64,000 bases of DNA, from the NCBI RefSeq assembly GCF_053078305.1, contig NZ_CP166879.1; one strand, 5' to 3'. Of this stretch, positions 24,401 to 30,400 are shown piece after piece (within the stretch, counting starts at the first letter, position 1; each line of letters begins with the position of its first letter). The position numbers were made by a program.

Positions 24401-27400
24401 CTGATAATGCGTCCGTTCGTAAATTCAAAATGGCGTAATCTAATATATGCTAAATTTATTTGTTGGCCTTGATATATACACAGGGCTTTTGTTATTACTT
24501 GCTCTGGCATTTGTGTTGTTCTACGAAGCAATCAATGGTTTTCATGACACGGCGAATGCGGTGGCAACCGTTATTTATACTCGTGCCATGCAGCCACAGC
24601 TTGCCGTGGTGATGGCGGCATTTTTTAACTTTTTTGGCGTGTTATTGGGCGGACTTAGCGTTGCCTATGCCATTGTCCATATGTTGCCAACCGATTTGTT
24701 GCTGAATATGGGGTCAACCCACGGCCTGGCGATGGTCTTTTCCATGCTGCTGGCGGCGATTATCTGGAACCTGGGAACGTGGTTCTTTGGTTTACCGGCC
24801 TCCAGTTCGCATACCTTGATTGGCGCGATTATCGGCATCGGTTTAACCAACGCGCTGTTAACCGGCTCATCGGTGATGGATGCGTTAAACCTGCGTGAAG
24901 TGACCAAAATTTTCTCCTCGCTGATTGTTTCCCCTATCGTCGGCCTGGTCATTGCGGGAGGCCTGATATTCCTGCTGCGACGCTACTGGAGCGGAACGAA
25001 AAAGCGTGACCGTATTCACCGCATTCCGGAAGATCGCAAAAAGAAAAAAGGCAAACGTAAGCCGCCATTCTGGACGCGTATTGCGCTGATTGTTTCCGCT
25101 GCGGGCGTGGCGTTTTCGCACGGCGCGAACGACGGACAAAAAGGGATCGGCCTGGTGATGCTGGTACTGGTGGGGATTGCCCCTGCTGGCTTCGTCGTCA
25201 ATATGAACGCGTCCGGCTATGAAATTACCCGTACCCGCGATGCCGTTACCAACTTCGAACACTACCTGCAACAGCATCCTGAACTGCCGCAGAAGTTGAT
25301 TACGATGGAACCTCCATTGCCTGCGGCATCTACTGATGGCGCGCAAGTGACGGAGTTTCACTGTCATCCGGCAAATACCTTTGATGCGATTGCGCGCGTT
25401 AAAACGATGCTGCCAGGCAATATGGAAAGTTACGAGCCGTTAAGCGTGAGTCAGCGCAGCCAGCTGCGCCGCATTATGCTGTGCATCTCTGATACCTCCG
25501 CGAAGCTGGCGAAACTGCCAGGCGTCAGTAAAGAAGACCAGAACCTGCTGAAAAAACTTCGCAGCGATATGTTAAGCACCATTGAGTACGCTCCGGTGTG
25601 GATCATCATGGCGGTAGCACTGGCGCTCGGCATTGGCACCATGATTGGCTGGCGTCGTGTAGCGATGACCATCGGTGAGAAGATTGGTAAGCGCGGCATG
25701 ACGTATGCGCAAGGCATGGCGGCACAAATGACGGCGGCAGTGTCTATCGGTCTTGCCAGTTATATTGGGATGCCCGTCTCCACAACACACGTCCTCTCGT
25801 CTGCAGTTGCAGGGACGATGGTGGTGGACGGCGGTGGGTTACAGCGTAAAACGGTAACCAGCATCCTGATGGCATGGGTGTTTACTTTACCGGCGGCAAT
25901 TTTTCTTTCTGGTGGGCTGTACTGGATAGCATTGCAGTTGATTTAACCTTCCTGAAAATGCCCGGTCCTGGCGATCGGGCATTTCCATATTTGGCTAGTG
26001 ATAACCACGCGCGGTCATAAAATCCGTAATCGCTTTTTCTGCATCAACCAACACCTGTTCCAGTGGCTGATTGGCATCGATATCAACCAGTTGTGCACCA
26101 CCAAAGGTTAACTGTGGCGTTATGGCAATCTTCCTCGCCAGCGATTCCCGTTTATGGTCGGGTTTACGCATGCAGGCAACTTCAAGGTCAACATTGAGTT
26201 TGATGACCAGATCAGGCTTATGGCTCGCCATCCAGTGAAACGCTTTACGTTCCTGGCTTGCCAGCCATGAGACAAAACGACTACCTTCAACGTTAGGTGG
26301 GAACACCGTACCATCGTAAGCGCCCGGAATTTGGTCCTGAGGATAACGGTCGGTTAGAACAATTAACCCGCGACGACGACAGGCAAGCATATGACGAAAG
26401 CGCAGTAAGCGATGGGCGACAAACGCTGTAATTACCAGCGCCGGAACTGGTCCTGGCAATTTTTTTGCTGTTTTCACCTGATTTCGTTCAATTGTTTTAT
26501 GTAAGGATTTTCCCATCAACGGTAATTTTGTCACTGCACGACCGACATTTCCGGCCTGTTTTCCTAAATGAACTCTTTCGGCAGCACCATATTTTTCGAC
26601 AACGGTAATGAGATGTTCACACACCGTTGACTTGCCTGAACCATCGCTACCAATAACGGCAATTAATGGAGGTGTTATTGACTGCATGAATATATCCTTA
26701 AATTTAAATATCCATCCAAAATATTTATTTGGTTAATATGTTTTTATGAAAGCGTAATTCAGGTCAATGTCACAATTAACCATTGTCACAATAAGGTTGA
26801 ACGGATATTCTGAGCACGGACCACGTAATATTCAATACATTATTTACTGTCGGGTTTTTCGTGAATCAACGTAATATGTCAATAATTAATTCCACGCCAG
26901 TGCGTGTTATTGCCATTGTAGGATGTGATGGTTCAGGTAAATCGACCCTCACGGCAAGCCTGGTAAATGAACTGGCAGCAAGAATGCCAACAGAATGCAT
27001 TTATCTCGGGCAATCGTCCGGGCGAATTGGCGAATGGATTTCACAGCTCCCTGTTATTGGCGCACCTTTTGGGCGTTATCTGCGAAGTAAAGCGGCACAT
27101 GTGCACGAAAAGCCCTCAACACCGCCTGGCAATATTACTGCGCTGGTTATCTATCTGCTTTCCTGCTGGCGGGCGTACAAGTTTCGCAAAATGTTGTGTA
27201 GAAGCCAGCAAGGCCATCTGCTCATCACCGACCGCTACCCGCAGGTTGAAGTGCCGGGTTTTCGCTTTGATGGCCCGCAATTGGCAAAAACCACGGGCGG
27301 TAACGGTTGGATAAAAATGTTAAGGCAGCGCGAGTTGAAGCTGTACCAATGGATGGCGTCTTATTTACCCGTATTGTTGATTCGTCTTGGCATTGATGAA

Positions 27401-30400
27401 CAAACCGCGTTTGCGCGTAAACCTGACCACCAACTGGCAGCGTTACAGGAAAAAATCGCCGTTACGCCGCAACTGACATTCAATGGCGCAAAGATCCTTG
27501 AACTGGATGGTCGGCAACCAGCCGATGAAATTCTGCAAGCGTCACTACGCGCAATTCACGCCGCGCTTTCCTGATCACCAAAATGGATAGGGGATGATTT
27601 AACGAATGGATGCACTACAAACACAAACTGTTATTAGTACAACCGCGCCGCAGCCCAACTACATTCCGGGGCTGATTGCGGTGGTCGGGTGTGATGGCAC
27701 CGGTAAATCCACGCTGACCACCGACCTGGTGAAATCGCTGCAACAACACTGGCAAACCGAGCGCCGCTATTTGGGGCTGCTCTCCGGCGAAGACGGCGAC
27801 AAAATTAAACGATTGCCGTTGGTTGGCGTCTGGCTGGAACGGCGACTGGCGGCCAAATCCTCGAAAACCCAAAGCATGAAAACCAAATCTCCGGCGCTAT
27901 GGGCGGCGGTGATTATGTACTGCTTCTCGCTGCGAAGAATGGCGAATCTACGCAAGGTTCAGCGACTGGCGCAAAGTGGCGTTCTGGTGGTCAGCGATCG
28001 CTTCCCGCAGGCTGAAATTTCGGGCTTTTATTATGACGGACCGGGGATCGGCGTCGAACGTGCGACCGGGAAAATCAGCATGTTTCTGGCGCAGCGCGAA
28101 CGGCGTTTATACCAAAAAATGGCGCAATACCGTCCTGAATTAATCATTCGTTTGGGGATTGATATTGATACTGCCATCTCCCGCAAGCCTGACCATGACT
28201 ATGCCGAGCTGCAGGACAAAATCGGCGTCATGTCGACGATTGGCTATAACGGCACAAAAATTCTTGAGATTGATTCCAGAGCGCCCTACAGCGAAGTGCT
28301 GGAACAGGCACAGAAGGCGGTTTCTCTGGTTGCCATCGTTTCTGACCGCCGAAGTTTAACTTAAGGCTGGCGGGATACTTTTTACTATCAACGATAAGGT
28401 CAGGCTGAATTGGCGGGTTTTAACATCAAACATTGGTTTGCAGATGGCGCGTTTCGCACCATTATTCGCAATAGCGCCTGGTTAGGCTCCAGTAATGTCG
28501 TGAGCGCTTTGCTGGGGCTGTTGGCGCTCTCGTGTGCCGGTAAAGGGATGACGCCCGCCATGTTTGGCGTACTGGTGATTGTGCAATCGTACGCCAAGTC
28601 GATCAGCGATTTTATTAAGTTTCAGACATGGCAGCTGGTGGTTCAGTACGGAACACCAGCATTAACCAACAATAATCCGCAGCAATTTCGCAATGTCGTC
28701 TCATTTTCCTTCTCGCTGGATATCGTCAGCGGCGCGGTGGCGATTGTCGGCGGCATTGCCTTACTGCCATTCCTTTCCCATTCATTAGGTCTGGATGACC
28801 AAAGCTTTTGGCTGGCGGCGCTGTATTGCACGCTCATTCCTTCAATGGCTTCCTCCACGCCGACCGGCATTCTGCGTGCGGTAGATCGCTTTGATTTGAT
28901 TGCTGTACAGCAGGCGACGAAACCTTTTCTGCGCGCAGCGGGGAGCGTCGTAGCCTGGTATTTTGACTTTGGTTTTGCGGGTTTTGTTATTGCCTGGTAC
29001 GTGTCGAATCTGGTTGGCGGCACCATGTACTGGTGGTTTGCCGCGCGCGAATTACGCCGCAGAAATATCCATAACGCCTTCAAATTGAATCTGTTTGAGT
29101 CTGCCCGACACATTAAAGGCGCGTGGAGTTTTGTCTGGTCGACCAACATTGCCCACTCCATCTGGTCGGCACGTAACTCGTGCAGCACAGTGTTGGTGGG
29201 GATCGTGTTAGGACCCGCTGCCGCCGGGTTATTTAAAATCGCCATGACATTCTTCGACGCCGCCGGAACGCCAGCGGGTTTACTGGGTAAAAGTTTTTAC
29301 CCAGAGGTGATGCGTTTAGATCCGCGCACCACCAGACCGTGGTTGTTAGGCGTGAAGTCCGGTTTACTGGCGGGCGGAATCGGTATTCTGGTGGCGCTCG
29401 CGGTGTTGATCGTCGGCAAGCCGCTCATTTCGCTGGTGTTTGGCGTTAAGTATCTCGAAGCGTATGACCTGATTCAGGTGATGCTGGGCGCAATTGTGAT
29501 CTCGATGCTGGGCTTCCCTCAGGAGTCATTGCTATTGATGGCGGGAAAACAGCGCGCTTTTCTCGTGGCGCAAACCATCGCCTCAATCGGCTACATCGTA
29601 TTGCTGTTCATGTTCTGTCATCTGTTTGGCGTGCTGGGAGCAGCGTTTGCTTACTTCGGTGGGCAATGTCTGGACGTGGCGCTCTCGTTAATTCCAACCT
29701 TAAAGGCATTTTTTCAGCGCCATTCCTTGCTTTATAACGCAGCCGGAGAGAAATCCTGATGATGAGAAAATATTTCCCGCTTGAGGCGAGCGAGCGTCTA
29801 TTTGTTGCGATTGAAGAAGATGATGTCGTTGATGCACAGGTTAGTTTGCCGCCGACTATTGCACTAAGTTGTACCACCGAAATCATTCATGATAATTACG
29901 CGTTATGCCTGCAATTCTGGCTCAATGGCGTTGATCGTCAGGAATTACTTCGTTTAGTTCGCAAACAAGCCAAAGGCGATGAGCTGACTGCTGATGAGTG
30001 CAAACAATTTAAATACATGCGAGCGCGCTACAAGCACCTGCGTTTTGCGCAACGGCTGTATTTAAAGAAGCATCAGGCCGGATTTTTATTCGGCAAAACG
30101 ACCGTTTTTCTGGGACGTTTTCAGGACGGATTTCGTAACGGTAAGAAAAATATTGTGTCGTATTACGGCAACCTGTTACGAATTTATTTAAGCTCTCCGG
30201 TCTGGTCGTTGGTGAACTATTCATTACGCCATAGCCAGTTAGAAAGCGTAAGCGGTTTTATTGCCTATCGGCAAAAGCAAATGCATGCCCTGAAAGAGAT
30301 AATTGCCAAACCGCGACTAACCGGCAGGGAATTTCATGATGTGCGAAAAATCATCAGCCAGCAGGTTTCTTATTACGACACCTTAAGATCGCTTGATCCT

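Follow-up and report, generated by a model that had tools for sequence, protein, structure and literature searches.

YghT, YghS and YghR of Escherichia coli: a conserved triad of thymidylate kinase-like proteins linked to the ceramide locus, and a candidate module for lipid head-group phosphorylation

The sphingolipid locus of Caulobacter crescentus (CC_1152-CC_1168) encodes the ceramide kinase CpgB (CCNA_01218; PMC10331486), a CDP-alcohol-type transferase and nucleotidyltransferases, which lead to ceramide diphosphoglycerate; no P-loop kinase has been described in it (PMC11324152; bioRxiv 10.64898/2026.04.12.717747). LptF2 and LptG2 of Caulobacter bind each other and the housekeeping LptB and have been implicated in sphingolipid export (bioRxiv 10.64898/2026.04.12.717747). 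A different type of kinase is PPK3 of Sulfolobus acidocaldarius, which consists of two thymidylate kinase (TMPK) paralogues, Saci_2019 and Saci_2020, whose operon also contains the gene of the CHAD protein Saci_2021; its catalytic subunit cPPK3 is paired with a regulatory subunit, rPPK3, that lost the arginine of the DRX motif (PMC12995831). CHAD domains bind inorganic polyphosphate (PMC6537752). In E. coli B, the genes ECD_02850-02854 have been assigned ceramide-locus roles, ECD_02851-02854 being the orthologues of aasR, cerR, acpR and spt, and co-expression of AasR, AcpR and Spt of E. coli gave 3-oxo-sphinganine, none of which was formed in extracts of E. coli BL21 carrying the empty vector (PMC9386255). 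Here we describe three adjacent genes, yghT, yghS and yghR, from a stretch of 64,000 nucleotides of an E. coli chromosome (RefSeq assembly GCF_053078305.1, contig NZ_CP166879.1; the whole stretch is called the window below). The lipid cluster beside this triad is the proteobacterial ceramide locus, spt-acpR-cerR-aasR plus yghO. Whereas Caulobacter relies on the enzymes listed above, the E. coli-type locus contains three kinases with a TMPK fold and a CHAD-like protein, and we tentatively propose that these serve to phosphorylate a ceramide-derived lipid.

Three open reading frames of 230-252 amino acids occupy positions 25995-28364, exactly where an earlier note on this DNA had placed them. 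That they are paralogues, as the note claimed, is evident from BLASTP (YghT against YghS 36%, E 1e-52; YghT against YghR 33%, E 6e-45; YghS against YghR 44%, E 6e-62). The Walker A motif reported there reads GSDGSGKST in YghT, GCDGSGKST in YghS and GCDGTGKST in YghR, and the DR(Y/F)PQ motif was found as DRYPQ, DRYPQ and DRFPQ, respectively. A further motif missing from its list, RKPDH, is common to all three proteins. The ABC signature, said to be lacking, is indeed absent from each of them (no [LFY]SGG[QEM]), and none of the three contains a transmembrane segment.

The suggested resemblance to thymidylate kinases also stood up to profile comparison. A profile of 54 family members matched solved TMPKs with E values of 4e-11 to 1e-9 over a region spanning the P-loop, the DRY motif and the LID, and its alignment with Tmk of E. 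coli scored 95.5% in hhalign (E 1.5e-8, 192 columns, 17% identity). TMPK was the best fold match of the kinases, and all three possess the P-loop GxxGxGK[ST], with its Asp, together with DR[YHF] and a basic LID. None of them reached the curated family threshold: the NCBIfam model TIGR00041 (dTMP kinase) gave 24.7, 23.1 and 31.1 bits, the last for YghR, against a cut-off of 83.25, and the Pfam family PF02223 (Thymidylate_kin) stayed below threshold with a best E value of 0.007. No significant Pfam match was obtained for the three E. coli kinases or for the one relative of about 500 amino acids that was scanned. In a library clustered at 50% identity the family had 2186 representatives at a cut-off of E <= 1e-3, a number that fell to 1305 at E <= 1e-10. 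Unlike Tmk, whose gene lies in an mltG-tmk-holB context, YghT, YghS and YghR carry motifs of their own (DRxPQ, DGP and RKPDH), have a high isoelectric point (pI 9.6-10) and are encoded in a lipid context. They probably form a distinct clade of the thymidylate kinase superfamily. The genes have long been known as encoding 'putative ATP-binding proteins'; RefSeq names the product of yghR a 'nucleoside/nucleotide kinase family protein' and those of yghT and yghS 'dTMP kinase', and the latter name is probably wrong.

The linkage of the triad to the ceramide genes was studied in a scan of one genome per species, which yielded 80 loci with a relative of YghS, 53 of them with full flanks of 10 kb. 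In nearly all 80 loci yghT (-), yghS (+) and yghR (+) were adjacent. Of the 80 loci, 54 contained spt; among the 53 with full flanks the number was 43, and in 43 of these 53 the triad was located no more than 10 kb from spt-acpR-cerR-aasR. yghQ accompanied the triad in 62 of 80 loci; either yghQ or the gene of a 274-amino-acid protein encoded directly downstream of it in the window was found in 70 of 80 (50 of the 53 with full flanks). The linkage was kept across at least five gene orders, in Enterobacterales, Rhodanobacteraceae, Halomonadaceae, Betaproteobacteria and others. Depending on the lineage, the ceramide genes follow lptG2, precede yghT or separate yghR from yghQ, and in several Betaproteobacteria the 274-amino-acid gene was situated between yghT and yghS. 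A linkage that outlasts rearrangements of this kind argues strongly for a shared function. Membership of the triad in the sphingolipid pathway is well supported and, in our view, likely. In Oecophyllibacter a fused double kinase was found beside the 274-amino-acid gene, a yghQ homologue and glycosyltransferases.

The genes that recur beside the triad in other taxa act on lipid phosphates and were counted in favour of a lipid-phosphate function. They encode a lipid A 1-phosphate methyltransferase resembling LmtA (E 7e-31; found in 11 loci), LpxE/LpxF-type PAP2 phosphatases (15 and 8 loci), a DgkA-like small membrane lipid kinase (16 loci) and an OlsC/LpxO-like acyl hydroxylase (19 loci). The adjacency of pitB, considered as a clue to phosphate metabolism, was discarded; it is confined to Escherichia, Hafnia, Pseudocitrobacter and Citrobacter and represents plain synteny. 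Some lineages possessed four kinase genes, two of them yghT-like, and in several Betaproteobacteria only the yghS-yghR pair of the triad was seen on the contig (the loci concerned are L069, L072 and L074, from metagenome-assembled genomes of Lysobacterales, L059 and L076).

Orthologues of each kinase were extracted from the 80 species, about 75 species per group being used for conservation. Identity was 57-59% within the YghT, YghS or YghR group, 43% between YghS and YghR, and 35-37% between YghT and the other two. As identity is lower between groups than within them, the triplication must be older than the spread of the module through the Proteobacteria. Columns conserved to at least 90% in each group comprised G-D-G-G-K-T of Walker A, a helix arginine, D-R-x-P-Q, D-G, a glutamate, R-K-P-D-H and a lysine; the D-G column is specific to this family, and the arginine of DR(Y/F) was 100% conserved in all three groups. 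The helix arginine of TMPK (R76 of the human enzyme) contacts the thymine base. The three do not resemble pseudokinases, and all are apparently catalytically competent. The groups differ at conserved positions on the acceptor side, for example in having lysine, glutamine or leucine after the LG motif; many conserved basic residues also differ between them. With a median pI of 9.7-10 all three kinases are strongly basic, and lysines and arginines are conserved at many positions outside the catalytic set. We dropped an argument based on two conserved acceptor-phosphate arginines, since of the two only that of DRY carries information, and this residue fails to separate hydroxyl from phosphate acceptors. 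Natural fusions of YghS-like with YghR-like domains (P0121) and of YghT-like with YghR/YghS-like domains (P0029, P0122, P0123) argue that the paralogues act together. By all appearances the three copies are anciently diverged and non-redundant.

Relatives of the kinases were also found outside ceramide loci. A large set of more distant relatives of about 470-530 amino acids (P0162, P0168, P0172 and others) combines an N-terminal domain of about 260 amino acids (motif CHWKSN...GETDLDLLV), for which neither a Pfam nor a PDB sequence match was obtained, with a YghRST-like kinase. The genes of these proteins directly follow that of a Wzx-type flippase in Wzx/Wzy polysaccharide loci (e.g. L085, 7223-8731). 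Some of the proteins are fused to a MOP flippase (P0222, P0267) or to a GT4 domain (P0251). The flippase fusions and the Wzx/Wzy context imply that the pairing of kinase and MOP flippase is old and not limited to ceramide.

The 274-amino-acid protein had no sequence match in Pfam, NCBIfam or PDB. By eye, its motifs KHLRF, FHxxRK and GxxGxxHD resemble those of CHAD domains. Its predicted structure (predicted local distance difference test score, pLDDT, 94.8) displays the fold of two four-helix bundles and the conserved histidine and basic residues that characterise CHAD domains; across 43 homologues four histidines and six arginines or lysines were invariant. We therefore call it CHAD-like on the strength of its predicted fold, which falls short of proof that it belongs to the CHAD family.

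Taken together, YghT, YghS and YghR may constitute, with the CHAD-like protein and YghQ, a phosphorylating head-group module that acts on a ceramide-derived lipid; as a whole statement, we give this slightly less than an even chance. The E. coli locus contains no homologue of the Caulobacter head-group genes (the set of PMC11324152) and no glycosyl- or CDP-alcohol transferase. Lacking other head-group genes, it leaves the three kinases and the CHAD-like protein as the only head-group candidates, and because enzymes of lipid phosphates accompany the module in other taxa, we propose that the triad phosphorylates a ceramide-derived lipid. The earlier note had suggested that the kinases could phosphorylate a lipid or sugar intermediate or act as a three-step phospho-relay, and this is partly supported: their membership of the TMPK superfamily and the linkage to the ceramide locus speak for kinases of the lipid pathway, while the lipid acceptor itself, like the addition of more than one phosphate and a three-protein complex, is something we infer. 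In the mechanism that we envisage, AasR, AcpR, Spt, YghO and CerR would make dihydroceramide on the cytoplasmic side. The kinases, basic, soluble and probably hetero-oligomeric, would put a phosphate on the ceramide-derived lipid at the cytoplasmic face and would probably lengthen it to a di- or oligophosphate, in the manner of the phosphate-to-phosphate transfer of thymidylate kinases and PPK3. The CHAD-like protein would hold the phosphate chain and YghQ would flip the anionic lipid, whose extraction for the outer membrane would fall to LptF2/LptG2, with the housekeeping LptB as their source of power. In a bolder version, which we regard as unlikely, the triad is a lipid-directed relative of PPK3 that builds a tri- or oligophosphate on ceramide-1-phosphate ('polyphospho-ceramide'), to be flipped by YghQ and exported by LptF2G2-LptB.

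CpgB would be the functional counterpart. It too is a soluble cytoplasmic kinase in a sphingolipid locus that starts an anionic head group, and its role is the one that YghRST would fill in loci without cpgA-D. In both organisms the expected product would be an anionic outer-membrane sphingolipid. However, CpgB is a member of the LCB5/diacylglycerol-kinase catalytic family and has a GGDG motif in place of a P-loop (PMC10331486). It has no homology to YghRST, which show no DAGK_cat Pfam match, and the idea that YghRST are CpgB homologues was rejected.

The closest known analogue of the triad is PPK3. Both systems consist of adjacent TMPK paralogues with a basic surface and a partner that is CHAD or, here, predicted to be CHAD-like, in organisms with a separate true tmk. 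YghRST could be a heteromeric soluble kinase of the PPK3 kind that makes or consumes free polyphosphate, the CHAD-like protein binding the polymer, for phosphate or energy supply or buffering and with the lipid left unmodified. We regard this as unlikely. There are three paralogues here instead of two, and all retain DR(Y/F), whereas every predicted PPK3 operon has a regulatory subunit without the DRX arginine. No PPX, SixA, NUDIX or Pst genes are among the recurring gene families of the 80 loci, and pitB adjoins the triad only in close relatives of E. coli. The family is no closer in sequence to cPPK3, as represented by its homologue 2plr_A (27 bits with the family profile), than to ordinary TMPKs (46 bits). 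Most predicted carriers of PPK3 lack PPK1 and PPK2, whereas E. coli has PPK1. Free polyphosphate would leave the strict linkage to ceramide, MOP flippase and Lpt genes unexplained. It is somewhat less improbable, though still rather unlikely, that the triad comprises three ordinary kinases of hydroxyls or small molecules, which phosphorylate different hydroxyls of a sphingoid intermediate or of ceramide (C1-OH, C3-OH and the acyl 2-OH), or a soluble head-group precursor that is transferred to ceramide afterwards, and build no phosphoanhydride chain. Here it must be remembered that the E. coli locus encodes no transferase to move a soluble phosphorylated head group onto ceramide, that the CHAD-like partner would be left without explanation, and that the nearest relatives by profile and fold are TMPKs, which phosphorylate a phosphate.

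The three proteins might instead be transport NTPases whose hydrolysis of ATP energises or gates YghQ or LptF2/LptG2, nothing being phosphorylated. The locus encodes LptF2/LptG2 permeases but no ABC ATPase of its own, some sources label members of the family as ABC-type ATPase components, and relatives are fused to MOP flippases; even so, we rate this well below the hydroxyl-kinase and polyphosphate explanations. A more specific form of it, that YghRST are the ABC ATPase subunits of LptF2G2, was rejected on motif and fold, since the proteins show neither the LSGGQ signature nor the ABC fold. That they are redundant housekeeping kinases of dTMP or other nucleoside monophosphates, and merely neighbours of the lipid cluster, we find hardly credible. 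The RefSeq names and the best fold match would agree with it, but scores of 23-31 bits are far from the TIGR00041 cut-off, the Pfam Thymidylate_kin E values are 0.007 or higher, E. coli has a separate tmk in the mltG-tmk-holB cluster whose product is 17% identical to the family, and the linkage to ceramide genes persists through rearrangements in the 80-species set. A role in anti-phage defence was also considered and dropped; the PADLOC matches were weak and nearly all limited to the P-loop.

Several observations weigh against a phosphorylating head-group module. Ten of the 53 loci with full flanks have no ceramide gene within 10 kb, and the relatives in Wzx/Wzy loci suggest that a glycan or a sugar linked to a lipid may have been the original substrate. 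E. coli K-12 MG1655 (L088, 3129043-3132408, corresponding to window positions 29400-37800) has IS5 (insH9) between yghO and a 3'-truncated yghQ; it lacks the 274-amino-acid gene, the ytfJ-like gene, lptF2, lptG2, spt, acpR, cerR and aasR, and retains an orphaned yghRST despite this IS5-linked loss of lipid genes. The CHAD-like assignment has its own difficulties: the top Foldseek match of the model, 6qv5, was weak (probability 0.94, E 0.14, TM-score 0.40), the Pfam CHAD family (PF05235) matched one of 43 homologues with an E value of 0.089 and the E. coli protein not at all at E <= 10, and an hhalign comparison with YgiF was negative. In the literature searched we found neither a link of yghR, yghS or yghT to lipids, sphingolipids, CHAD or PPK3 nor a di-, tri- or polyphosphate of ceramide. 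The roles given here to the members of the family are predicted.

Of 5426 complete E. coli genomes, 4604 contained the kinase region at a coverage of at least 80% and 4068 the lipid/export part; about 540 complete genomes had the kinases without the lipid part. Although the full locus is thus carried by 4068 of these genomes and its first enzymes work (PMC9386255), no description exists of the mature sphingolipid that E. coli and other Enterobacterales would make. The present analysis names its likely head-group enzymes, namely three kinases, a CHAD-like protein and a flippase, which are unrelated to the CpgA-D route of Caulobacter, and so makes the identity of the enterobacterial head group directly testable. 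What would be new is that enzymes of the TMPK superfamily, as three paralogues joined by a CHAD-like protein, serve a lipid pathway. Polyphospho-ceramide, if it exists, would represent a strongly anionic type of outer-membrane lipid not seen before, encoded in about three quarters of E. coli genomes and in many other Proteobacteria. Chemistry of the PPK3 type, should it be found here, would carry that recently discovered enzyme family beyond the energy metabolism of archaea into the envelope lipids of bacteria, and could bring to light a new anionic lipid of the outer membrane with a bearing on polymyxin sensitivity and host recognition.

The positions of the genes are summarised in Table 1. 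The window is about 99% identical to many RefSeq genomes and shows the order hyb - yghU - gss - pitB - yghT - yghS - yghR - yghQ ... yghO - glcC. The divergence of yghT and yghS noted earlier was found as described, with an AT-rich spacer between them, and so was the direct continuation of yghS-yghR into yghQ and the export genes: the gaps in the run yghS-yghR-yghQ-274aa-ytfJ-lptF2-lptG2 are 31, 45, -1, 8, 30 and -4 bp. These seven genes look like a single operon, and the sole strong terminator-like hairpin (16 pairs) is found 3' of lptG2. Otherwise the promoter and terminator scans gave results at chance level; one sigma-70-like site in the yghT/yghS spacer (26783-26811, +) was not above chance expectation.

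Table 1. Features of the yghTSR-ceramide region in the window, and examples of accessory genes in loci of other taxa
Feature	Position	Strand	Description
yghT	25995..26687	-	230 aa; TMPK-fold P-loop kinase paralogue T; open reading frame and motifs including RKPDH
yghT/yghS divergent AT-rich control region	26688..26860		173 bp, GC ~0.44
yghS	26861..27574	+	237 aa; TMPK-fold P-loop kinase paralogue S; open reading frame
yghR	27606..28364	+	252 aa; TMPK-fold P-loop kinase paralogue R; open reading frame and motifs; best NCBIfam match TIGR00041
yghQ	28410..29759	+	449 aa; membrane protein of the MOP (Wzx-like) flippase family; NCBIfam E 1.9e-8
274-aa protein gene, unannotated	29759..30583	+	CHAD-like predicted fold; predicted structure
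YtfJ-family protein gene	30592..31155	+	TIGR01626 E 1e-62, above cut-off; signal-like hydrophobic N-terminal segment
lptF2	31186..32256	+	LptF paralogue; RefSeq annotation; Pfam LptF_LptG in orthologous loci
lptG2	32253..33332	+	LptG paralogue; RefSeq start, maximal open reading frame begins 32172
Hairpin between convergent lptG2 and spt	33330..33364		GC-rich, 16-bp stem; likely bidirectional terminator
spt	33367-34539	-	Ceramide backbone gene
acpR	34539-34787	-	Ceramide backbone gene
cerR	34819-35733	-	Ceramide backbone gene
aasR	35730-37460	-	Ceramide backbone gene; RefSeq start ~37418
yghO	37815..38957	+	Putative ceramide synthase (N-acyltransferase); CC_1154 orthologue according to PMC9386255
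Accessory lipid-enzyme genes (examples, other loci)	L052 792-1340, 1515-2198, 2905-3648; L016 11530-12276; L003 1416-1778		

Some information on regulation is available for K-12. In PMC5797941, yghS was up 3.1-fold on overexpression of SlyA and was marked 'K, O' in the overlap columns of the table, which we tentatively take to denote overlap with H-NS binding data sets. Should this reading hold, laboratory conditions may leave the locus silent, and that would go some way to explaining why its product has not been seen.

Some features outside the locus deserve mention. A scan of positions 20000-42000 for RNA elements revealed nothing but an naRNA4 (CssrE) element, derived from REP, at 21686-21762 (-) downstream of yghU (an Rfam score of 81 bits, higher than the gathering cut-off). 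The gss gene (22861-24156) has an in-frame internal deletion of 567 bp (189 codons) relative to other E. coli. An 11-bp direct repeat lies at its junction (23540-23550), and a 67-bp probe across the junction was contiguous in none of the 5426 complete E. coli genomes; the deletion is either a lesion specific to this strain or an artefact of assembly or editing. Between yghO and glcC, at 38963-38973, the DNA differs by an indel of about 85 bp from that of strain 23CRST011 (L001, 27071-27156).

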